DNA of 32,210 bases from a virus: UHGV virus genome UHGV-0152653; one strand, given 5' to 3'. Numbering within the stretch: position 1 is the stretch's first letter; each line of letters starts with the position of its first letter. Below, in pieces: positions 3,923 through 26,094 of the stretch. The notes beneath the pieces were generated by a model. It was given only the letters and a program-made list of their open reading frames with translations, did not search any database and had not been told where the DNA came from. The position numbers were made by a program, and so were the translations under genes.

Positions 3923-4156
3923 ATGCGTAATATTGATACCCTCACGACTAAAACCGGACCGGATGACGCAGGGCTTAATATTTTACTGACAGAGGCTCGT
4001 CTGGAAGAACGCCGGGCAAGGGCTGAAGCAATGGCAGCTCGCCTTGATCGCCTGGCGTGTCATATCACATCCCGCCAGTTAAACCACGTCGAAGCGGCAG
4101 AACTGCTGCGTGTGACTGCTGAAGCAATCCAGAACGAAGCGCAGGAGATCCACTGA
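3923..4156 (+). CDS. Hypothetical early protein (77 aa)
   Basis: ATG at 3923 with GGAGA RBS at 3911-3915; stop overlaps the start of the next gene. Confidence 0.5.
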   Translation: MRNIDTLTTKTGPDDAGLNILLTEARLEERRARAEAMAARLDRLACHITSRQLNHVEAAELLRVTAEAIQNEAQEIH

Positions 4157-4383
4157 TGGCTGATGCAATGGATCTCGTCCAGCAGCGCGTTGAAGAAGAA
4201 CGCCAACGTCATATCCGTGCTGCCCGTGCCAAAACGCCGGGCGTGTCCCGCGTGCTTTGCGTTGAGTGTGAAGCGCCAATTCCGCCAGCACGCCGTCGTG
4301 CCATTCCGGGTGTGCAGCTTTGCATTACCTGTCAGGAAATCGCAGAGCTGAAAGGCAAACATTACAACGGAGGTGCTGTATGA
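4156..4383 (+). CDS. TraR/DksA-family C4 zinc-finger protein
   Basis: CVECEAPIPPARRRAIPGVQLCITCQ four-Cys motif typical of the TraR/DksA family; common in P2-like early operons. Confidence 0.7.
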   Translation: MADAMDLVQQRVEEERQRHIRAARAKTPGVSRVLCVECEAPIPPARRRAIPGVQLCITCQEIAELKGKHYNGGAV

Positions 4384-5237
4384 GCACCATCCTGAAATGG
4401 GCGGGAAATAAAACCGCCATAATGTCCGAACTGAAAAAGCATCTTCCTGCTGGCCCGCGACTGGTTGAACCTTTCGCGGGTTCCTGTGCAGTGATGATGG
4501 AGACGGATTACCCCAGCTATCTTGTTGCGGATATTAATCCTGATTTAATCAACCTCTATAAAAAGGTTGCTGCTGATTGTGAGGCGTTTATATCTCGTGC
4601 CAGAGCTTTATTTGAGGAAGCAAACAGGGAGGTGGCTTATTACAACATAAGGCAGGAGTTTAATTACTCCACTGAAATTACTGATTTCATGAAAGCGGTA
4701 TATTTTCTGTATCTCAATCGTCATGGTTACCGTGGGTTATGTCGCTATAACAAGAGCGGGTATTTCAACATTCCCTACGGTAATTATAAAAATCCGTATT
4801 TCCCTGAAAAAGAAATTCGCGCATTTGCAGAGAAAGCCCAGCGGGCAACGTTTATCTGCGCCAGCTTTGATGAAACGCTGGCGATGTTGAAGGCGGGGGA
4901 TGTGGTGTATTGCGATCCGCCGTATGACGGTACGTTTTCCGGCTATCACACTGATGGTTTCACTGAAGATGACCAGTATCACCTGGCATCCGTTCTTGAA
5001 CATCGGTCATCAGAAGGACATCCGGTCATTGTTTCTAACAGTGACACATCCCTGATCCGTTCGCTGTATCGCAATTTTACTCACCACTACATCAAGGCAA
5101 AACGCAGCATCGGTGTGGCAGCTGGTGATAGTAAATCTGCAACAGAAATCATTGCTGTTTCCGGGGCGCGCTGCTGGGTGGGATTTGATCCTTCGCGTGG
5201 CGTAGATAGTTCTGCTGTGTACGAGGTGCGTGTATGA
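4380..5237 (+). CDS. dam: DNA N6-adenine methyltransferase (Dam-like)
   Basis: Motif [10 protein letters not shown] and motif IV DPPY ([10 protein letters not shown]); GGAGGTG RBS before ATG 4380; stop overlaps the gpA start (ATGA). Confidence 0.8.
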
Positions 5238-7618
5238 GTCATGACGATATGAGCAACTCTAGCGGCTTTAACGAGGCCGCTGCATCATTTTCATGGAACG
5301 GCCCGAAAAAGGCCATTAACCCTTATCTGGACCCGGCGGAATTTGCGCCGGAGTCTGCACTTTCAAACCTGATCACTCTGTATGCTGCCGATAACGAGCA
5401 GGAACAACTGCGCCGCGAGGCACTGAGTGAGCAGGTCTGGGAGCGTTATTTCTTTAATGAATCCCGTGATCCTGTCCAGCGCGAAATGGAGCAGGATAAG
5501 CTCATTAGCCGGGCAAAGCTGGCGCATGAGCAGCAGCGTTTTAATCCAGACATGGTCATTCTGGCTGACGTCAACGCCCAGCCTTCCCATATCAGCAAGC
5601 CGCTGATGCAACGTATTGAATACTTCAGCAGTCTGGGCAGGCCAAAGGCTTATTCCCGCTATTTGCGTGAGACGATTAAGCCATGTCTGGAAAGACTGGA
5701 GCATGTACGCGACAGTCAGCTATCCACTTCTTTTCGCTTTATGGCAAGCCATGAAGGGCTGGACGGCCTGCTGATCCTGCCTGAAATGAGTCAGGATCAG
5801 GTAAAACGCCTGTCCACCCTGGTAGCAGCGCATATGAGCATGTGTCTTGAGGTCGCTTGTGGTGATTTGTATGCCACCGATGACGTTAAGCCAGAAGAAA
5901 TCCGCAAGACATGGGAAAAGGTGGCGGCGGAAACCCTGCGACTGGATGTCATACCGCCTGCGTTTGAGCAACTCCGCAGGAAAAGAAACCGCCGTAAACC
6001 CGTGCCCTATGAACTTATTCCGGGTTCGCTGGCGCGTATGTTGTGCGCCGACTGGTGGTATCGGAAATTATGGAAGATGCGTAGCGAATGGCGGGAAGAG
6101 CAGTTGCGTGCTGTTTGCCTGGTCAGCAAAAAAGCATCTCCCTATGTCAGCTATGAAGCCGTGATGCATAAACGTGAGCAGCGCCGTAAGTCGCTGGAGT
6201 TTTTCCGTTCTCATGAACTGGTGAACGAAGACGGCGACACGCTGGATATGGAAGACGTGGTAAACGCCAGCAGCAGCAACCCTGCGCATCGCCGCAATGA
6301 GATGATGGCCTGTGTTAAAGGTCTGGAGCTTATCGCGGAAATGCGCGGTGACTGCGCCGTTTTCTACACCATCACCTGTCCGTCACGTTTCCATTCCACG
6401 CTAAATAACGGCAGGCCAAACCCGACCTGGACCAACGCGACAGTAAGACAAAGCAGCGATTATCTGGTCGGCATGTTTGCTGCATTTCGTAAGGCTATGC
6501 ACAAAGCCGGGTTGCGCTGGTATGGCGTGCGGGTGGCTGAGCCGCATCATGACGGCACAGTTCACTGGCACCTGTTGTGTTTCATGCGCAAAAAAGACCG
6601 CCGCGCCATTACTGCATTGTTGCGTAAGTTTGCCATCCGTGAAGACCGCGAGGAGCTGGGCAATAACACGGGGCCACGCTTTAAGTCTGAGCTGATAAAC
6701 CCGCGCAAAGGAACGCCGACAAGCTACATTGCGAAATATATCAGTAAGAATATTGACGGGCGTGGTCTGGCTGGCGAGATCAGTAAGGAAACGGGTAAAT
6801 CCCTGCGTGATAACGCTGAATACGTTAATGCCTGGGCGTCTCTGCATCGTGTTCAGCAATTCCGCTTCTTTGGCATTCCGGGGCGTCAGGCTTACCGTGA
6901 ACTGCGATTGCTGGCTGGTCAGGCGGCAAGGCAACAGGGGGACAAAAAAGCAGGTGCGCCGGTACTGGATAACCCGCGCCTTGATGCAATCCTGGCTGCT
7001 GCTGATGCTGGTTGTTTTGCCACTTACATCATGAAGCAGGGCGGCGTACTGGTTCCCCGCAAATATCACCTCATCAGAACTGCTTATGAAATTAACGAAG
7101 AGCCGACCGCCTATGGCGATCACGGCATTCGTATTTATGGCATCTGGTCACCCATTGCAGAGGGCAAGATCTGCACTCATGCAGTGAAGTGGAAAATGGT
7201 TCGTAAAGCCGTTGACGTTCAGGAGGCGGTAGCCGACCAGGGCGCTTGCGCCCCTTGGACTCGTGGCAATAACTGTCCCCCTGTTGAAAATTTGAACCAA
7301 TCAGGGGGCGATTTACCAGAAGCCAGTGGGCCGGAGTCGCTGCCGGATCTTCATAATCTGAGCGCGAAGGAACGACGGGAGCTGACGGCGCGGCTGAGAT
7401 TGGTAAAACCTAAGCGGCGGAAAGGGTACAAACAGCAGATTAGCAATCATCAGCGCCAGCAGCTTGATGCTGAACTGAGGTCTAGGGGGTTCGATGCGAG
7501 TGATACCGAGGTGGATCTGCTTTTGCGTGGTGGCAGTATCCCGTCCGGGGCCGGGCTGCGTTTGTTCTATCGAAACCAGCGCCTGCAGGAAGATGATAAA
7601 TGGCGGCAGTGGTACTAA
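5234..7618 (+). CDS. A: Replication initiation endonuclease gpA (rolling-circle, HUH)
   Basis: 794 aa; HUH motif in [10 protein letters not shown] and paired-Tyr motif YIAKYISK; position as in P2/186. Confidence 0.85.
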
Positions 7619-7689: not shown

Positions 7690-8148
7690 CTATTTAGTTT
7701 TTTCAATCATAGTGCTTTCGGCTTTTGAATATACACTATTAATAGTGGTGATTTTTGTAGTTAATGCTATACAAACTAGACTCAGAAGTAAGACACCAAT
7801 TGATATTGTATTGTTGCTGAGTATTATATGTAGACAAATAGAATAAATTGCAACGATGACTATTGCTACGAAAACAAAGATTGCCATTAAATTATGTGCT
7901 TTGATGTAGTCCTCAGGGGTTAATATGTAGCTTATGTTTATGATTATAAATAAAATTAAAAATGCTCCCCCAATCCATTTGGGTAGGGCTGTTTCTTTTT
8001 TTGATACTGCAGGTGTGGTTCTTGGGATCGATTCTACGAAGGATTTAAGATTTCCCATGTCAGTATTGTTTAATGCTGCACTTTCTGCTTCGAATTTTGA
8101 AACAGTGCCATCAGGAAGGGTTGTAGTCCAGCTTATTTTTCCTGTCAT
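7690..8148 (-). CDS. Small membrane protein (152 aa, three predicted TM helices); candidate effector of a two-gene cargo system
   Basis: N-terminal ~55 aa hydrophilic, then three hydrophobic segments (WIGGAFLILFIIINISYIL, LMAIFVFVAIVIVAIYSICLHIIL, ISIGVLLLSLVCIALTT); ATG overlaps the stop of the upstream gene (ATGA); AT-rich by eye. Confidence 0.55.
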   Translation of the reverse strand: MTGKISWTTTLPDGTVSKFEAESAALNNTDMGNLKSFVESIPRTTPAVSKKETALPKWIGGAFLILFIIINISYILTPEDYIKAHNLMAIFVFVAIVIVAIYSICLHIILSNNTISIGVLLLSLVCIALTTKITTINSVYSKAESTMIEKTK

Positions 8149-8519
8149 ACAACATCCCTTATTCTGAATATTCTATTAAAATCAATATCAACAGCAGAGT
8201 TCGACCACTCACTCTTTTGATTATCTTTAATTAGAATTGCTTTGTTCTCGTCAAAGATTATATTTGTACCACTAAACTCAATATGAGATAGGTCTCCTCT
8301 AAATATTTTTTGCTCAACGCTTTTGAATGCATCTTTTAATGATGCACACTCTTTTCTGAATAATGGTTTGGGGCTGTAAGTCCCTAAGTTTATAACTATT
8401 ACGCCACTACCATCTTTAGCAGGGTGAATGGAGAAAGATAGCGCTAATCCGTGATAGTGGGATTGTATTTTCTTCATTAATTTACGAACGTAATCATCAT
8501 ACCGCTTTCTATATATCAT
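8145..8519 (-). CDS. Hypothetical soluble protein (124 aa); upstream partner of the membrane protein
   Basis: ORF with 4-bp overlap onto the downstream gene; no recognisable motif; AT-rich; weak RBS, so the start is uncertain. Confidence 0.5.
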   Translation of the reverse strand: MIYRKRYDDYVRKLMKKIQSHYHGLALSFSIHPAKDGSGVIVINLGTYSPKPLFRKECASLKDAFKSVEQKIFRGDLSHIEFSGTNIIFDENKAILIKDNQKSEWSNSAVDIDFNRIFRIRDVV

Positions 8520-8683
8520 TTTTTTCTTAATGGTTAGTTGTTTTTCGTATATTACAATACTAATAAATATATTGTCGATTCAAATAAAACGTTGTAGCCA
8601 AGCGGAAGAATTTTAGTTTACGGATGGTTGTTTTTTGATCTCCATAGCCGAAGGCAATCTGAACTATAGTGATCATAAAAGTG

Positions 8684-8727
8684 TTTACATTCATGGAACT
8701 ACGCATATACTGTATATGTGTACAGTG
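8684..8727 (+). promoter_or_regulatory. SOS-regulated promoter with LexA operator
   Basis: -35 TTTACA (8684-8689), 16-nt spacer, -10 TATACT (8706-8711); LexA box TACTGTATATGTGTACAGTG (8708-8727), CTGT-N8-ACAG and 17/20 to consensus, overlapping the -10. Confidence 0.7.
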
Positions 8728-8757
8728 CTTTCTGTGTGTTTGGTGATAGGAGGGAAG

Positions 8758-8946
8758 ATGCAAGACTATTTTTTGGAGTCGTTGAAGCTCCAGCGCATTG
8801 ATTTTTTTGTCAAGCTTGTGGCGGCTAGTGAGTGTGATGATGAAGAGAAGCGACTGGCTATCCAGTGGGTTTCTGAGTTAACGGATGAGCTGATGGCAAA
8901 GATTCGTGCTCATGAATACAACCGCTCAATGGATCTTCCCAGTTAA
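8758..8946 (+). CDS. Hypothetical SOS-controlled protein (62 aa); candidate antirepressor module (positional equivalent of 186 tum)
   Basis: First ATG downstream of the LexA-box promoter with AGGAGGG RBS; acidic small protein; function assigned by position only. Confidence 0.45.
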   Translation: MQDYFLESLKLQRIDFFVKLVAASECDDEEKRLAIQWVSELTDELMAKIRAHEYNRSMDLPS

Positions 8947-9024
8947 CAGCAGGAACGTTGCTGGCGTGAGAACTAGCTTCTTACGTCAGCAAGGTTAAAC
9001 AACGAGTACAACGAGGCGTTAGCC

Positions 9025-9291
9025 ATGGGTAAATCCAACAGCAAATTCCAGACCGTTTATGAGGGGCAGGCGCTTGAACGTGACGAACTTGGCGGATGGG
9101 TTTTGTTTCAGCGTCGTGTAGAGTATGGCGGCAAGTACTGGATGGGAATAACCATGGATGATGTGTTTTTGTTTGGCTCCGATCATCCTGTATCAGGTAG
9201 TGAGGCGATGGTCTTCATCATTGATTATGAGGGCGAGCAGCTCAGACGGTCTTTACCCGTTGGATACACCCCACAAATGCCGCTTTTCTGA
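9025..9291 (+). CDS. Hypothetical SOS-controlled protein (88 aa)
   Basis: Second ORF of the same transcription unit, followed by a terminator at 9359-9384. Confidence 0.45.
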   Translation: MGKSNSKFQTVYEGQALERDELGGWVLFQRRVEYGGKYWMGITMDDVFLFGSDHPVSGSEAMVFIIDYEGEQLRRSLPVGYTPQMPLF

Positions 9292-9358
9292 CAACCGGCT
9301 GGGTGCATGTCTATGCTGCATGAGATCGCATGATCGTTTGAGGATCGTTTTCGCTGAG

Positions 9359-9384
9359 GCCCGCCAGAACTGGCGGGCTTTTGC
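9359..9384 (+). terminator. Rho-independent terminator
   Basis: GCCCGCCAG-aa-CTGGCGGGC perfect 9-bp stem followed by TTTTGC. Confidence 0.55.
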
Positions 9385-9427
9385 TTATGTCATGCAGGTG
9401 CATGAAAATCGCTCCATAAAGCGGGCA

Positions 9428-9446
9428 GGCGTGGCGGGGATACGAG
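9428..9446. other. cos: cos-like element (candidate cohesive-end site)
   Basis: GGCGTGGCGGGGATACGAG resembles the P2/186 19-nt cohesive end as I recall it (GGCGAGGCGGGGAAAGCAC); lies in the region next to the portal-terminase genes where cos is expected; from memory, not verified. Confidence 0.3.
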
Positions 9447-9577
9447 CGCGCGCTGGGAGGTATAAGAATGAAGTACAATTAACTTCACTTTGTTGAGTAA
9501 AATGCTATAAGAATAATGCAAATTATTGAGTCCCATTAGTTCAAAACTTAGGGATATCTTATGTGAAAGGAGGTTAT

Positions 9578-11299: not shown

Positions 11300-12331
11300 C
11301 TATGCAAGGTTATATTCATTAAATTGCATTATTGGCTCCTTTATCCATTCATTTACTTCTTGAAGCCTTTTTTGCAATGGAATTAGCTCATTACGGACAA
11401 AGACCCTGCTGGCTTTCTCCACATCCCCAAATCCCCCGACATTATTTGGCATTATCCCCATCATTTGTGGCGGCACACGATGCGCAGCCATCATGTCATC
11501 CCGGCTCACGTTCTTGATATTCAGAAACTCATCCTTCGCCGCGACTTCTGACAACGGGATGATCTGAAGCCCGTCCTTTTTGCCGTTAGGCGAGTACATA
11601 AACAGGTTGCGGAAGTTGCCAGGGCCTTTGGCGCTTTTCATCGCATTGCGGAGGTTGTTCACATCCTCCTGGTTCTGCGCGGCATCGGTCATGTACATGA
11701 TGAAGCCTGCATGACTGCCGTTAATGTAATACTTCCGGCGGAACAGCGTGGCGGACTCGTTGAGCAGGGCCGACGGAATGGCAGAAAGATAACCTGGCAG
11801 GCCGTAGATCTCCTGGTTGATGTCAGGTTCCATCAGATGAAAAATGCTGCCTTTCGTGAACTGATACGGCTGGGTTGTCATACCGTATTGCACAAACCAG
11901 TAGGTATCCAGGTCTAACCCGCGTCGGGTGTATTTTGCCAGCGCAGGCTCAAGGGCTATAACTTCACCGAATCGGTTCGTGCGTTTCTCCAGGTAGGCGT
12001 TACCAAATACCAGATAGTCCTGCACAAAACGCGAAAAAGCCTGTTGGCTGAGCAGCGGATGAGGGATATAGGTACTGGTCAGAATGTTGCACTTTACTGC
12101 AATCGGGGAACTGTGATGCACGGCAGCCCGGAAGGTGCGCGCCAGTCCGTCAAAACTTACGGGTGGCTCATACCAGCGATCCGTCTGTACGCATTCCACA
12201 TAGTCCAGCAGTTCGCGGCGGTCCAGTACAGGAATGGGATCACCAAAGCTGAAAGCTTCGGCTGAAGTTTGATTTTTATGCTGGCTCCGTTTCGTCGCAG
12301 CAGCGCGGTTTTTCTTACTCTTTCCCATCAA
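11300..12331 (-). CDS. Q: Portal protein (P2 gpQ-like)
   Basis: 343 aa, leftward, overlapping the large terminase gene; size and position as P2 Q. Confidence 0.85.
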   Translation of the reverse strand: MMGKSKKNRAAATKRSQHKNQTSAEAFSFGDPIPVLDRRELLDYVECVQTDRWYEPPVSFDGLARTFRAAVHHSSPIAVKCNILTSTYIPHPLLSQQAFSRFVQDYLVFGNAYLEKRTNRFGEVIALEPALAKYTRRGLDLDTYWFVQYGMTTQPYQFTKGSIFHLMEPDINQEIYGLPGYLSAIPSALLNESATLFRRKYYINGSHAGFIMYMTDAAQNQEDVNNLRNAMKSAKGPGNFRNLFMYSPNGKKDGLQIIPLSEVAAKDEFLNIKNVSRDDMMAAHRVPPQMMGIMPNNVGGFGDVEKASRVFVRNELIPLQKRLQEVNEWIKEPIMQFNEYNLA

Positions 12332-14094
12332 AAAATCTCCACAATATTGCTGGTATTGGCGGACTCGCCCTGCAGCGGTTCGTTAAACAGTGCGTGCATT
12401 GTTGCCCAGGCCAGATCGGCGTGGCTGGCTTCTTCGCTGCGGCTAGCTTCATAGGTCGGGCGGTTGCCGCTGGCGGTGGTGGCGCGACGGATTGCCATGA
12501 ATGACTGCGCAATGTCGGTGTGCCCGGCGTCAAACTCCAGACGGCGGTGGCTGATAATGTCGTAGGCCTTGAGTACCAGGGCGTTTTTAACGTTGGGGTT
12601 GTAGACAAACTCCCGGACGGCAGGAAAGAACGCTTTCACGTTCTCATAAACCCCGTGACCGACGCCTGTCGAGTCGATGCCGATATAGGTCACGTTGTAC
12701 TGCTCGGTCAGTTTTTTGATTGCATCAGCCTGGGCGCGGAAGTCCATCCCGCGCCACTGGTGACGCTCAAGAATGCGAAACTTACCGCCTGGCACGGCTG
12801 GCGGTGCCACCACCACGCATCCGGCGCTGTCGCCATTCTGCGTACCTTTTGCCGGGTCATAACCGATCCACACCTCGCGCCAGCCAAACGGGCGCAGGGC
12901 CAGTGCATGAAAGTCGGTCCAGACTTCCCAACTGTCCACCATGCACGCCTGCAGCTCGCTGAGCGGAAACACGGATGCGAGATCGTCCACAAACTCGCAC
13001 ATCAGCAGGTTCTGGTATTCGTCCGGGCTGTACTCCATGCGTAGCTGGTCGAGGTCGAACAGGTTACAGCCGCCGCGCACCGCATCTTCCACGGTGACTA
13101 TCTGGCGGTATTGCCCGTCTGCGCACAGCAGGCCGGGGGCCAGATTGCTGTGGGACAGGTCGATGTCCACCTTATCGGCTTTGTTGCGCCCACGGTTGAA
13201 CAGCGCACCGGACCAGAACGGATAAGCACTGTGTGTCAGACTGGATGGCGTGGAAAAATAGGTTTGTCGCCATTTTTTGTGAATAGCCATACCGGAAGCC
13301 ACTTTGCGCAGCTCCTGGAATTTCGGTATCCAGAAATATTCATCCAGATACAGGTTGCCGTGGTAACTCTGGGCCGTGCGGGCATTGGTGCCGAGGAAGT
13401 AAAGCGTGGCCCCGTTGGGAAGCACCATCGGATCGCCTTTCAGCTCCACTTCCACTTCTTTGGCGAAGTCGATGATGTACTGCTTAAAGACGTGGGCCTG
13501 TGCTTTGCTGGCGGAAAGGAAAATCTGGTTACGTCCGGTCAGCAGGGCGTCAATCAGGGCTTCACGGGCAAAGTAAAAGGTCGCGCCGATCTGGCGTGAC
13601 TTCAGCAGGTTGCGGATGCGGTTGGTTTTTCCGGCTTCCCACCAGTGGCGCTGGTAGTTGAACATGGAGGAATGGAAGATTTCTTCCAGCTTCTCAATCT
13701 GTTCATCGGTGAAAACATTCTTTTCCGGCTGACGGCGCGGGCCTTTGTTGCGGTTGGCGACGTTTGGGTTTAAGTCGGCTTCGTTGCCGCCATTGTTAAA
13801 CTTGCCGATCCGCGCGTGGCGTTCCGACTGGCGCGCCAGCAGGTCAATCTCTTTGAAATCTTTCCCTTCTTTGTGCTCCTTCATAATGAGCTGGCAGTAG
13901 CGTGCGGCGGTGGTGAGCTGCATCTGATCCAGCGGCCCATAGTCACCCCACTTGTCGCGTTTTTTCCAGCTGTGAACGGTTGCAACTTTCTCGCCCAGCA
14001 TTTCAGCAATGCGGGCTACGCGGTATCCCTGAAAGTACAGCAGCATGGCCTGCCGACGGGGATCGAGATCTGCGGGTGTCAGTGTGGTGTTCAT
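12328..14094 (-). CDS. P: Terminase large subunit (P2 gpP-like)
   Basis: 588 aa, leftward, upstream of Q; size and position as P2 P. Confidence 0.85.
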   Translation of the reverse strand: MNTTLTPADLDPRRQAMLLYFQGYRVARIAEMLGEKVATVHSWKKRDKWGDYGPLDQMQLTTAARYCQLIMKEHKEGKDFKEIDLLARQSERHARIGKFNNGGNEADLNPNVANRNKGPRRQPEKNVFTDEQIEKLEEIFHSSMFNYQRHWWEAGKTNRIRNLLKSRQIGATFYFAREALIDALLTGRNQIFLSASKAQAHVFKQYIIDFAKEVEVELKGDPMVLPNGATLYFLGTNARTAQSYHGNLYLDEYFWIPKFQELRKVASGMAIHKKWRQTYFSTPSSLTHSAYPFWSGALFNRGRNKADKVDIDLSHSNLAPGLLCADGQYRQIVTVEDAVRGGCNLFDLDQLRMEYSPDEYQNLLMCEFVDDLASVFPLSELQACMVDSWEVWTDFHALALRPFGWREVWIGYDPAKGTQNGDSAGCVVVAPPAVPGGKFRILERHQWRGMDFRAQADAIKKLTEQYNVTYIGIDSTGVGHGVYENVKAFFPAVREFVYNPNVKNALVLKAYDIISHRRLEFDAGHTDIAQSFMAIRRATTASGNRPTYEASRSEEASHADLAWATMHALFNEPLQGESANTSNIVEIF

Positions 14095-14140
14095 GGCACA
14101 AACCTACAGCCTTGAATGAAGGCTTTCCCCGCCTGCGGTT

Positions 14141-14158
14141 TGTGTGGTTGTCGGTACA
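14141..14158. promoter_or_regulatory. Ogr/B-type late activator site (TGT-N12-ACA) in the divergent P/O late promoter region
   Basis: TGTGTGGTTGTCGGTACA between the P and O starts, about 80 bp upstream of the O ATG. Confidence 0.5.
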
Positions 14159-20048: not shown

Positions 20049-20066
20049 TGTATCAGCACTGATACA
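20049..20066. promoter_or_regulatory. Ogr/B-type late activator site (perfect palindrome TGTATCAGCACTGATACA) upstream of the baseplate operon
   Basis: TGT-N12-ACA dyad with extended perfect symmetry, 47 bp upstream of the V ATG. Confidence 0.55.
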
Positions 20067-21942: not shown

Positions 21943-22540
21943 TCTGCTGCCACCGGGTTCAACACCACTGGAGCGCCGACTGGCGCAAACCTGCAGCGGG
22001 ATTTCTGATCTGCAGGTTCCACTGCGTGACTTGTGGGATCCGGCTACCTGTCCGGTCAGTTTCCTGCCTTATCTCGCCTGGGCGTTCTCTGTGGATCGCT
22101 GGGACGAGGACTGGATGGAAAGCGTCAAACGCCAGGTGGTGAAGGATGCTTTTTATATTCATCAACACAAAGGAACCACCAGTGCCGTGCGGCGGGTGGT
22201 GGAACCGTTCGGATTCCTGATCCGCATTATTGAGTGGTGGCAGACCGGAGAAACACCGGGCACGTTTCGTCTGGATATCGGCGTGCAGGACCAGGGCATC
22301 ACTGAAGATACCTATCTGGAACTTGAGCGACTGATAAGCGATGCCAAACCATGTAGCCGTCACATGATCGGCATGTCCATCAACCTGCAGACCAGCGGCC
22401 CGCATTGGGTGGGAGCCGCCAGCTATCTTGGCGAAGAAATCACAATCTATCCGTATATCAACGAAACGATTATTTCCGGTGGCACCGCTCATGAAGGCGG
22501 GGCGGTCCATGTTATTGACACAATGAGAGTGAATCCATGA
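21935..22540 (+). CDS. I: Baseplate/tail fibre attachment protein (P2 gpI-like)
   Basis: 201 aa; position between J and H. Confidence 0.8.
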   Translation: MNSLLPPGSTPLERRLAQTCSGISDLQVPLRDLWDPATCPVSFLPYLAWAFSVDRWDEDWMESVKRQVVKDAFYIHQHKGTTSAVRRVVEPFGFLIRIIEWWQTGETPGTFRLDIGVQDQGITEDTYLELERLISDAKPCSRHMIGMSINLQTSGPHWVGAASYLGEEITIYPYINETIISGGTAHEGGAVHVIDTMRVNP

Positions 22541-23940
22541 GCACAAAATTTTATACCCTGCTGACGGATATTGGCGCGGCGAAACTTGCCAGCGCCGCCG
22601 CGCTCGGTGTGCCGCTAAAAATTACCCATATGGCGGTGGGCGATGGCGGCGGAGTATTGCCAACGCCGGACGCAAAGCAGACGGCACTGGTAAATGAGAA
22701 ACGCCGGGCTGCGCTGAATATGCTTTATATCGACCCGCAGAACAGCAGCCAGATTATTGCTGAACAGGTGATCCCTGAAAACGAGGGCGGTTGGTGGATA
22801 CGTGAAGTGGGCCTGTTTGATGAGTCCGGAGCATTGATTGCCGTGGGAAACTGCCCGGAAAGCTATAAGCCGCAACTGGCTGAAGGCAGCGGGCGTACCC
22901 AGACCGTGCGCATGGTGCTGATTACCAGCAGCACGGACAATATCACCCTGAAAATCGACCCTGCTGTAGTGCTGGCAACCCGTAAGTATGTGGATGACAA
23001 AGCACTGGAGTTGAAGGTGTACGTGGATGACCTGATGGCAAAACATCTTGCCGCACCGGACCCGCATTCACAGTATGCACCCAAAGAAAGTCCGACGTTT
23101 ACCGGAACCCCCAAAGCGCCAACGCCAGCGGCGGGGAATAATACCACGCAGCTTGCGACCACCGCATTTGTTCAGGCGGCACTGACGGCTCTTATTAATG
23201 GTGCGCCAGCCACGCTGGACACACTGAAAGAAATTGCCGCAGCCATTAACAATGACCCGAAATTCAGTACCACCATTAACAATGCGCTGGCACTAAAAGC
23301 CCCGCTGTCGAGTCCGGAACTCACCGGAACGCCAACAGCACCTACTGCGGCACAGTCGGTCAACAATACACAGATTGCCACTACAGCTTTTGTGAAATCA
23401 GCGATTGCAGCAATGGTGGGTTCTGCACCTGCGGCACTGGATACACTGAACGAACTGGCGGCGGCACTGGGGAATGATCCGAACTTTGCCACGACAATGC
23501 TTAATGCGCTGGCAGGTAAACAACCGCTGGACAATACGCTTACCAATTTGAGTGGAAAGGATGTAGCTGGTCTTCTCACATACCTTGGTTTGGGAGAGGC
23601 GGCAAAACGGGATGTGGGAACACGTTCAGGCCAGATACCGGATATGAGTAGCTTTGCATCAGCACTCTCTTCGAGTGGCTACCAGAAATTACCTTCTGGA
23701 CTAATTATTCAGTGGGGGGCGGCTGTTGCTGGAATTGGCAGCACTGGGGGTACAGGAAATGTAGTCTCATTCCCTGTTGCATTCCCCAGATATTGCGCCC
23801 AAATAATTACATCTTACGATAATGGAAGTTCGTCAATCATTGCTGGCGCAGCCGGAAACCAAACTACCACTCAATTTCTTTTACGTTGTGATGCAACCGG
23901 TGGTAGTTATAACTTCCGCTGGTTAGCCGTGGGGTATTAA
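22537..23940 (+). CDS. H: Tail fibre protein (P2 gpH-like)
   Basis: Conserved N-terminus MSTKFYTLLTDIGAAKLA...; internal tandem ~72-aa repeat; divergent C-terminus. Confidence 0.85.
   Translation: MSTKFYTLLTDIGAAKLASAAALGVPLKITHMAVGDGGGVLPTPDAKQTALVNEKRRAALNMLYIDPQNSSQIIAEQVIPENEGGWWIREVGLFDESGALIAVGNCPESYKPQLAEGSGRTQTVRMVLITSSTDNITLKIDPAVVLATRKYVDDKALELKVYVDDLMAKHLAAPDPHSQYAPKESPTFTGTPKAPTPAAGNNTTQLATTAFVQAALTALINGAPATLDTLKEIAAAINNDPKFSTTINNALALKAPLSSPELTGTPTAPTAAQSVNNTQIATTAFVKSAIAAMVGSAPAALDTLNELAAALGNDPNFATTMLNALAGKQPLDNTLTNLSGKDVAGLLTYLGLGEAAKRDVGTRSGQIPDMSSFASALSSSGYQKLPSGLIIQWGAAVAGIGSTGGTGNVVSFPVAFPRYCAQIITSYDNGSSSIIAGAAGNQTTTQFLLRCDATGGSYNFRWLAVGY
23089..23529 (+). repeat. Tandem duplication (two ~72-aa units) within the tail fibre gene
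   Basis: Unit 1 SPTFTGTPKAPTPAAGNNTTQLATTAFVQAAL...DTLKEIAAAINNDPKF... and unit 2 SPELTGTPTAPTAAQSVNNTQIATTAFVKSAI...DTLNELAAALGNDPNF... align along their length. Confidence 0.7.
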
Positions 23941-23942
23941 TT

Positions 23943-24386
23943 ATGGATAACTACTATTTTTCACCTTCGACTTTGGCATTTTATCCTGAAGATCTCATGT
24001 TGTTATATGAAGCAGCAGGAACTTTACCTGATGATATTATTTCTGTGCCACATGAAATATTTGCTACTTATTCAGGAGAGACACCACGAGGGAAAAAGCG
24101 TGGTACTACAGAAGATGGGCAGCCCACCTGGATTAATCTACCGCCTTTAAGTCATGAGGAAGAAGTTGAGGTTGCGGACGCCCAAAGACAGTTTCGTATT
24201 GATGAGGCGAACGACTACATGAACAGTAAGCAATGGCCCGGTAAAGCAGCTATTGGTCGTCTGAACGGTGACGAACTGGCGCAATATAATTTGTGGCTGG
24301 ATTACCTGGACGCACTGGAACAGGTCAATACTTCCAGTGCGCCAGATATTGAATGGCCTACGCCTCCGGTAACTCAGGCCAGCTAA
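23943..24386 (+). CDS. G: Tail fibre assembly chaperone (P2 gpG/Tfa-like)
   Basis: 147 aa directly after H; Tfa-like C-terminus ending ...SAPDIEWPTPP. Confidence 0.8.
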   Translation: MDNYYFSPSTLAFYPEDLMLLYEAAGTLPDDIISVPHEIFATYSGETPRGKKRGTTEDGQPTWINLPPLSHEEEVEVADAQRQFRIDEANDYMNSKQWPGKAAIGRLNGDELAQYNLWLDYLDALEQVNTSSAPDIEWPTPPVTQAS

Positions 24387-24756
24387 TCTCAGGAGCCGTC
24401 GAAGTGTCGACGGCTTTTACTTCTTTTTTGTAGTTCATCCAGGCGGATAGTTTTTCTTTATCTGTACTGCTGATATCACCAAGCATTAATTCCACTCGCC
24501 AGTCAGCTGTGACATTATCGGCATGAGCAAGTAACTGCATTCGCTGATTTTCCGCACGTGCGACATAATCAATCACCGGGGATTTCAGTACCGGTAAACC
24601 ATTTTCATCTGACGTAATTAATTTACACCCTTCCTGCTGTCCGGCAATTAATTCATTGTATAAGTCTGTACTTACTCGAGTCCGGAGAATCAAGACAGCG
24701 TATTGCACTGATTTTTGATGTGGGTGTTTCCACAATTTATAGAAAATTTCCTGCAA
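24358..24756 (-). CDS. Orphan inverted tail fibre assembly gene (tfa-like), convergent with and overlapping the 3' end of G
   Basis: 132-aa minus-strand ORF with Tfa-like N-terminus and a C-terminus (...TAPEISWPELPEA) paralogous to that of G; 29-bp 3' overlap with G. Confidence 0.6.
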   Translation of the reverse strand: MQEIFYKLWKHPHQKSVQYAVLILRTRVSTDLYNELIAGQQEGCKLITSDENGLPVLKSPVIDYVARAENQRMQLLAHADNVTADWRVELMLGDISSTDKEKLSAWMNYKKEVKAVDTSTAPEISWPELPEA

Positions 24757-24828
24757 ATAAGAGCAATGAATCTCCCTGAATCAGCATTATTTTGATTATT
24801 CCTGCAAGCGGACAAATACCGTCATTTT

Positions 24829-24846
24829 GTGTGAATAACGGTACAA
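24829..24846. promoter_or_regulatory. Ogr/B-type late activator site (TGT-N12-ACA) upstream of the sheath operon
   Basis: TGTGTGAATAACGGTACA about 76 bp upstream of the FI ATG; shares the TGTGTG...GGTACA half-sites with the site at 14141. Confidence 0.5.
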
Positions 24847-24921
24847 CTGCGCTTAGCTGTTTGTCGGACACAATCACTTCAACATAGGGCGAAGCCTAAT
24901 CCAATCAGGAGGTTCGCCGCT

Positions 24922-26094
24922 ATGGCTCAGGATTACCACCACGGGGTGCGCGTTGTTGAAGTCAACGAAGGCACCCGATCCATTACCACGGTGAGCACCG
25001 CCATCGTGGGTATGGTCTGCACGGGCGATGATGCCGATGCAAAAATGTTTCCTCTTAATAAACCCGTGCTGATCACTGATGTGCTGACTGCCAGCGGTAA
25101 AGCGGGTGAGTCCGGCACGCTGGCCCGTTCGCTGGATGCCATCGCTGACCAGGCAAAACCCGTGACCGTTGTTGTGCGTGTGCCGCAGGGTGAAACGGAA
25201 GAAGAAACCACGACCAATATCATCGGCGCAGTGACTGCTGAAGGTAAAAAAACAGGCATGAAAGCTCTGTTATCTGCTCAGTCACAGCTCGGCGTTAAAC
25301 CGCGCATTCTGGGTATACCAGGTCACGACACCAAGGCGGTAGCTACTGAGTTGCTGAGTGTGGCGCAAAGCCTGCGTGGGTTTGCTTACCTGTCAGCGTA
25401 TGGCTGCAAGACTGTGCAGGAGGCAATCACTTACCGTGAAAACTTCAGCCAGCGCGAAGGGATGCTGATCTGGCCCGACTTTACTGGCTGGGACACGGTG
25501 CTGAATGCCGAAGCAACGGCATATGCCACCGCCCGTGCGCTTGGTCTGCGTGCCAAAATTGATGAGCAGACCGGGTGGCACAAAAGCCTGTCCAACGTGG
25601 GCGTGAACGGTGTCACCGGAATTTCTGCTGATGTGTTCTGGGATCTGCAGGACCCGGCAACCGATGCGGGACTGCTTAACCAGAACGACGTCACCACGCT
25701 TGTGCGCAAGGATGGTTTCCGCTTCTGGGGTTCCCGCTGTCTGAGCGATGATCCGCTTTTTGCCTTCGAAAACTACACCCGCACAGCGCAGGTACTGATG
25801 GACACAATGGCTGAAGCACATATGTGGGCGGTGGACAAACCGCTGAACCCGTCGCTGGCCCGCGACATTATCGAAGGTATCCGCGCCAAAATGCGCAACC
25901 TGGTCAGTCAGGGCTATCTCATTGGTGGTGATTGCTGGCTGGATGAGTCGGTGAACGACAAAGACACGCTTAAAGCCGGAAAACTCACCATCGACTACGA
26001 CTACACGCCAGTGCCGCCACTTGAAAATCTGATGCTGCGCCAGCGCATCACCGATCAGTACCTGGTGAATTTCGCCAGCCAGGTCAGCGCGTAA
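24922..26094 (+). CDS. FI: Tail sheath protein (P2 gpFI-like)
   Basis: 390 aa; AGGAGG RBS; size and position as P2 FI. Confidence 0.9.

Follow-up and report, generated by a model that had tools for sequence, protein, structure and literature searches.

A probable deletion scar of an invertible tail-fibre switch in a P2-like prophage of Escherichia coli

We analysed a stretch of viral DNA of 32,210 nucleotides (UHGV virus genome UHGV-0152653; hereafter the window) and conclude, with a probability of about 0.93, that the region between its tail-fibre gene H and its tail sheath gene FI is the scar of an invertible host-range switch of the Gin/Cin/Pin family in a P2-like (Peduoviridae) prophage. 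The ancestor would have carried, in order, the constant part of H, crossover site L, tip 1, tfa1, the inverted tfa2' and tip 2', crossover site R, the invertase gene, the promoter P_F and FI. The invertase would have flipped the segment from site L to site R, so that the late V operon expressed one tip together with its own chaperone gene, tip 1 and tfa1 or tip 2 and tfa2. A single 984-bp deletion, joined at a TTA microhomology (24672-24674) and attributed to illegitimate recombination, has destroyed this switch. With the segment unable to invert, the prophage would make the tip 1 fibre and tfa1 and no other, which would fix the host range. This is the ordinary decay of a well-known system and not a new system, and parts of it had already been flagged by automatic annotation.

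Results

The window and its gene neighbourhood

The window is a nearly complete P2-like prophage, which in a comparison of loci has 99.9-100% identity to a prophage carried by E. coli EC11, and it spans from the interior of the integrase gene to just beyond ogr. The EC11 copy is flanked by ybjL and rcdA. The first base of the window falls within the integrase gene of the prophage, and the last falls in the gap that separates ogr from the host gene ybjL. Coordinates of the features of the region are collected in Table 1. The product of H matches the Pfam family Phage_tail_fib in its N-terminal domain (E = 5e-65) and Gp53-like_C (E = 4.7e-16). Its constant part extends to about 23572, and the variable tip to which it is currently fused (the Gp53-like_C domain) lies 3' of a crossover site. 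The plus-strand tfa gene that follows (Caudo_TAP, E = 3.1e-25 over profile positions 4-130; PHROG 188, E = 1.2e-54) is the predicted expressed chaperone of the pair.

Elsewhere in the window, a 561-aa OLD-family ATP-dependent nuclease is encoded on the plus strand at 9563/9578-11263 (PADLOC Old, E = 1.3e-20); this protein also has weak matches to AriA/GajA-type ATPases. Its gene sits between the replication gene A (5234-7618) and the portal gene (11300-12331, minus strand), which is the position of the old/tin anti-phage hotspot of P2. Several small ORFs are present nearby at 7690-9496 and are labelled hypothetical in EC11.

Table 1. Features of the region from H to FI, in window coordinates.
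Feature	Position	Strand	Description
Tail-fibre gene H	22537..23940	+	467 aa; Phage_tail_fib N-terminal domain and Gp53-like_C tip
Left crossover site, gix/cix/pix-type, 26 bp	23573..23598		Within H; TTCTCACATACC-TT-GGTTTGGGAGAG
Tail-fibre assembly chaperone gene tfa (tfa1, P2 G analogue)	23943..24386	+	147 aa, full length
tfa' remnant	24358..24674	-	Codons 28-131 and stop of the inverted alternative chaperone gene; 27 N-terminal codons deleted
Putative intrinsic terminator of the V-W-J-I-H-tfa late operon	24391..24428	+	Within the tfa' coding sequence
Serine DNA-invertase 3' remnant, Gin/Pin-type	24672..24779	+	Residues 154-188 and stop, 35 codons; C-terminal HTH only
Deletion junction	24672..24674	.	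TTA present in both parents, 3-bp microhomology; from BLAST end-points and three-way alignment
Spurious 5' extension of the reported ORF	24675..24756	-	Residues 1-27 or 28; antisense to the invertase remnant; non-Tfa
Invertase-FI intergenic region with putative late promoter P_F	24780..24921	+	Ogr-type TGT-N12-ACA at 24828-24845
Tail sheath gene FI	24922..26094	+	Pfam Phage_sheath_1, E = 1.7e-32; Phage_sheath_1C, E = 6.3e-24

The minus-strand ORF is a truncated tfa' with an unrelated N-terminus

An ORF of 132 aa with a TTG start (24358-24756, minus strand) converges on tfa and overlaps it by 29 bp (24358-24386). The initial annotation had described it as Tfa-like, in keeping with which we found matches to Pfam Caudo_TAP (PF02413; E = 3.4e-22, 79.4 bits against a cut-off of 22.1) and to PHROG 188 'tail fiber assembly protein' (E = 4.5e-28); the resemblance is genuine and far exceeds chance. 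The two proteins had also been called paralogous at their C-termini, and BLASTP aligns them over 99 aa with an E-value of 4e-8, their tails ...APDIEWP and ...APEISWP included.

The further claim that the ORF is an orphan inverted tfa gene holds for residues 29-132, which are derived from a Tfa protein, but not for residues 1-28, and the gene is truncated at its 5' end. The Caudo_TAP match covers only positions 35-131 of a profile 131 positions long. Residues 29-132 align to residues 28-131 of the 131-aa tfa' products of Escherichia phage Cartapus and of the prophages of E. coli N17 and N39, with 3-4 substitutions, whereas in the same protein alignment residues 1-28 are unrelated to the full-length tfa' N-termini of these relatives, since this part of the frame runs antisense to an invertase remnant. 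Consistent with this, BLAST homology of the tfa' remnant to the relatives at the DNA level stops at 24674, and the 5' extension of the ORF has the coordinates of the invertase remnant. The complete two-domain structure of PF02413 is absent, since unrelated sequence stands in place of the first 27 residues of the 131-aa homologues. The cognate tip is absent too: in Cartapus, N17 and N39 a Gp53-like tip comes before tfa', and this tip falls within the 984-bp deletion. Judged by its sequence, this is no intact orphan tfa, and the ORF appears to be a chance chimera of 28 antisense-invertase codons and 104 tfa2' codons. PGAP starts the minus-strand gene at a GTG at 24708, which gives the 116-aa protein in RefSeq.

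An invertase remnant precedes FI

The plus-strand frame at 24672-24779 reads LLESGESRQRIALIFDVGVSTIYRKFPANKSNESP followed by a stop codon. It matches HTH_7 (E = 2.9e-9, profile positions 17-45), and 34 of its 35 residues (97%) are identical to residues 154-188 of the Cartapus invertase. PGAP labels the stretch as a partial HTH pseudogene, 'incomplete, missing N-terminus'. There is no intact invertase gene in the window, while the relatives carry a 188-aa protein with the Pfam domains Resolvase+HTH_7. The 5' 460 bp of the gene are missing, and with them the catalytic domain and the expected 5' enhancer region, and the promoter is missing too; in Gin and Hin, the Fis-dependent recombinational enhancer lies in the 5' part of the invertase gene.

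The initial annotation had reported neither an inverted tip nor an invertase gene here. No intact copy of either is present, but the 35-codon remnant had been overlooked. Similarly, the 165 bp between the ORF start and FI (24757-24921) had been described as non-coding DNA with an Ogr-type site; the spacing and the site stand, but the interval is not all non-coding, its first 23 bp being the end of the invertase remnant.

A single 984-bp deletion separates the window from intact modules

The closest phage to the window is Cartapus (OV696611; Peduoviridae, Elveevirus), which between I and FI has H, tfa, a convergent 131-aa tfa', an inverted 134-aa 'YfdL-like' tip and a 188-aa 'Gin homolog' invertase. 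Its tfa and tfa' overlap by 29 bp, as in the window. The prophages of N17 and N39 share this arrangement (H-tfa / tfa'-H' tip / crossover site / serine invertase / FI), and in Pfam terms the inverted tip of the relatives is Gp53-like_C. The complete H-tfa / tfa'-H' / invertase module that the initial annotation had suggested looking for in related prophages thus exists in all three. For P2-like prophages of E. coli, experiments by others have demonstrated such inversion (PMC4272514).

We used positions 22537-25100 as a BLAST query against the relatives' loci, including those of Cartapus, N17, N39 and SCU-485. Homology to Cartapus, N17 and N39 in H extends only up to 23646, at 95-97% identity. 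Homology across tfa/tfa' runs to 24674 (94.5% identity over 24197-24674), and homology picks up again at 24671 or 24672, from where it covers the 3' end of the invertase gene, the intergenic region and FI (96-98% identity over 24672-25100). Relative to each of these three genomes, 984 bp are absent from the window, and a three-way alignment of the junction reads ...GTCTGTAC-TTA-CTCGAGTCCGG... The lost segment comprises the first 27 codons of tfa', all of the alternative tip, the right-hand crossover site, the region of the invertase promoter and invertase codons 1-153. The junction lies within tfa' and the HTH-coding region of the invertase gene; because it is away from any crossover site, it points to illegitimate recombination and not to an invertase-mediated event.

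On either side of the junction the window shares synteny and high identity with intact modules, as common descent would predict. The proposal of a decayed invertible segment, one of two explanations offered in the initial annotation, is supported by these comparisons, in which the complete module is present in the closest relatives and both ends of a single deletion are mapped to the base. Two inverted sites, a full serine recombinase and two tips each with its own tfa, which characterise the Din family, are not found in the window; it holds one tip, one full tfa and the tfa' stump. Among 5,426 complete E. coli genomes we found no undeleted direct ancestor (a P2-like backbone with the same tip 1/tfa1 cassette and an invertase), and the best non-deleted matches in this set cover 61-65% of positions 23400-24960.

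One crossover site remains

We compared every 26-mer of the 32-kb window with the Din-type consensus. The only one within 2 mismatches is at 23573-23598 in H, and the runner-up has 7. The initial annotation had proposed a search for crossover repeats both within H and downstream of the inverted tfa, and had missed the site in H; the consensus scan found no inverted partner for that site anywhere in the window. Each intact relative has exactly two inverted 26-bp Din-type sites: the left site, in H, is TTCTCGCATACC-TT-GGTTTGGGAGAA, and the right site, TTCTCCCAAACC-AA-CGTTTATGAAAA, is found where the inverted tip has its 5' end, shortly before the invertase gene. The site in the window is the relatives' left site with two substitutions. 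The right-hand site of Cartapus, TTCTCCCAAACCAACGTTTATGAAAA, has no match in the window, either exactly or with up to 3 mismatches; this search was too strict to detect the left site, and its outcome fits deletion of the right site. The pattern AAACCNNNGTTT was uninformative, having a core of 3 nt instead of 2 nt, so the site count rests on the consensus scan.

Because the site in H has no partner, inversion in cis would be impossible, and by the 26-mer scan there is no intact invertible segment with its crossover sites in the window. We therefore regard it as highly improbable that the region still holds a segment able to invert, or that the invertase of another prophage inverts it in trans. 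One good crossover site has been kept, and Pin-family genes are widespread–sequence resembling the deleted segment is present in 2,339 of the 5,426 E. coli genomes, and much of it is labelled pinE–but two inverted sites in cis are needed, and there is no alternative tip left to bring into expression.

The crossover site is also a cassette boundary. The homology of H to the P2-like relatives ends shortly past it, and homology to the SCU-485 cassette begins exactly at it (23574), with tip 1 and tfa1 of the window (23574-24382) having 96% identity to the cassette at positions 3993-4801 of the SCU-485 locus. Cassettes may have been exchanged between the unrelated phage backbones of SCU-485 and the window at or near this site.

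Expression and function of the tfa' stump

In Mu, P1 and e14, tfa' has no promoter of its own and is read from the late promoter only after inversion. That route is closed in the window, because only one crossover site is left and the invertase is gone. Between 23900 and 25000 we found 2 sigma-70-like matches, compared with 2.1 expected from shuffled sequences; one is a 9-of-12 match on the minus strand at 24815-24786. A weak antisense transcript is conceivable. By inspection of the sequence, neither the TTG start at 24756 nor the GTG start at 24708 has a well-spaced Shine-Dalgarno sequence.

These data bear on the second explanation in the initial annotation, that the ORF is an alternative chaperone retained for other fibres. 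By way of its conserved C-terminal domain it might, for example, serve fibre variants made by co-resident prophages. Nothing is missing from the conserved C-terminal half, the frame is open and matches Caudo_TAP (E = 3.4e-22), and the weak promoter-like match lies upstream of it on the minus strand. However, native codons 1-27 have been replaced by antisense-invertase sequence, the cognate tip has been deleted, inversion behind the late promoter can no longer occur, the number of promoter-like matches is at chance and a well-spaced Shine-Dalgarno sequence is lacking at both start codons. In a passage of PMC9608196 that cites North et al. (2019), the variable N-terminal domain of Tfa is described as binding the fibre and the conserved C-terminal domain as oligomerising, and on that description the truncation cuts into the fibre-binding domain. 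We consider a functional chaperone very unlikely, and this part of the earlier interpretation is not upheld.

The retained part of tfa' is free of frameshifts and stop codons, and it differs from the relatives by 5 synonymous and 4-5 non-synonymous changes, too few to judge selection. The open frame says little about function, since 16 identical carriers (see below) mean a recent deletion. Most likely the 132-aa ORF, with neither a dedicated promoter nor a cognate fibre, would be non-functional.

A terminator and a late promoter in the interval

The candidate V-operon terminator begins 5 nt past the tfa stop codon and consists of a 12-bp GC-rich stem followed by UUUUACUUCUUUUUU (the U-run); its hairpin has a dG of -18 kcal/mol (z = -4.3 against shuffles). 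Cartapus carries an identical terminator sequence, and the V-operon terminator annotated in P2 occupies the corresponding place. The convergent tfa and tfa' share both 29 bp of coding sequence and the terminator. Because the terminator lies inside tfa' coding DNA, that part of the stump would have a role in cis regardless of coding.

At the other end of the interval, the 142 nt at 24780-24921 have 1-6 differences from the intact relatives. The centre of the Ogr-type site is about 85 nt before the FI ATG, compared with about 83 nt for the annotated pF activator site of P2. By itself, the motif TGT-N12-ACA is about as common in the window as chance predicts (9 found, 8.3 expected); four of the nine copies are at P2 late-promoter positions (14083-14100, 14141-14158, 20049-20066 and 24828-24845). 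These positions fall in the divergent P/O region and ahead of V and FI, and the other five matches are inside genes. Motif position and conservation are the sole grounds on which we assign P_F, and both the V-operon terminator and the Ogr-dependent P_F probably still work.

The deleted allele is found in 16 E. coli genomes

Sixteen of the 5,426 complete E. coli genomes carry an identical allele, with 100% coverage and identity over 24300-24960. The carriers come from humans, poultry, pets, pigs and sheep in different countries, and the region is annotated alike in all of them. Since all 16 are 100% identical across the junction, the deletion appears to be recent. The undeleted 984-bp segment is present at a coverage of at least 80% in 39 genomes of the same set.

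This distribution also speaks to whether the junction could be a mis-join made during assembly of a population mixed for segment orientation. Invertible segments are known to cause assembly ambiguity, but here the junction is away from the crossover sites, within tfa' and the HTH region of the invertase gene, and the 661-bp and 1561-bp sequences are identical across 16 independently assembled genomes from varied hosts and countries. An artefact is for that reason excluded for practical purposes, and we rate it as extremely improbable.

Discussion

The best comparison for this region is with the invertible segments of the Din family (Mu G, P1 C and e14 P, and P2-like examples in Cartapus, E2348/69, N17 and N39). 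The close P2-like relatives have the same order of modules (a fibre gene with an internal crossover site, tfa, a convergent tfa', an inverted tip, a second site and a serine invertase), and the window has 94-98% identity to them on both sides of the deletion. The difference is that the switch in the window would be dead: it has one site where they have two, it lacks the catalytic domain and a second tip, and its tfa' is truncated at the 5' end. Two other loci have lost their switches in other ways. SCU-485 has a KplE1/CPS-53-like (Mu/KplE1-like) remnant with a gp53-like tip, tfa and a partial tfa' pseudogene beside yfdG/yfdH, but its lesion is not the one in the window, having a shorter tfa' stump and no invertase remnant on another phage backbone. 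The plasmid-prophage p13P477T-2 has the full module layout with an invertase gene that is frameshifted rather than deleted. In both, as in the window, the switch was inactivated independently and the expressed tip/tfa pair was kept intact.

The initial annotation had placed the ORF in the cargo position of P2 Z/fun, and this is correct: fun(Z) of P2 occupies the same slot, downstream of G and the V-operon terminator and upstream of the Ogr-activated pF and FI. The slot holds a lysogenic-conversion gene there and an inversion module here. No sequence kinship with the P2 fun(Z) locus was apparent.

There is a small chance that the scar is not wholly inert. The orphan site in H might still be a substrate for the Pin-type invertases of other prophages, or the chimeric ORF might be expressed as a Tfa protein without most of its N-terminal domain and modulate fibre assembly. 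In the first case, recombination of the orphan site with other chromosomal crossover sites could lead to capture of a fibre tip or to a large chromosomal inversion. Related to both readings, loss of the switch might itself have been selected, if it tied the phage to a type of host in constant supply.

If the region is the scar of a switch, as we favour, our understanding of invertible fibre systems is unchanged by it. The junction would be a clean example of switch decay through a short-microhomology deletion and not through invertase-mediated excision, and the region presents a V-operon terminator embedded in tfa' coding sequence. The finding bears mainly on annotation, where the 132-aa ORF (116 aa in RefSeq) should be left out of any count of functional chaperones, and on host-range prediction, where this prophage lineage should be treated as having one fixed fibre without a switch.
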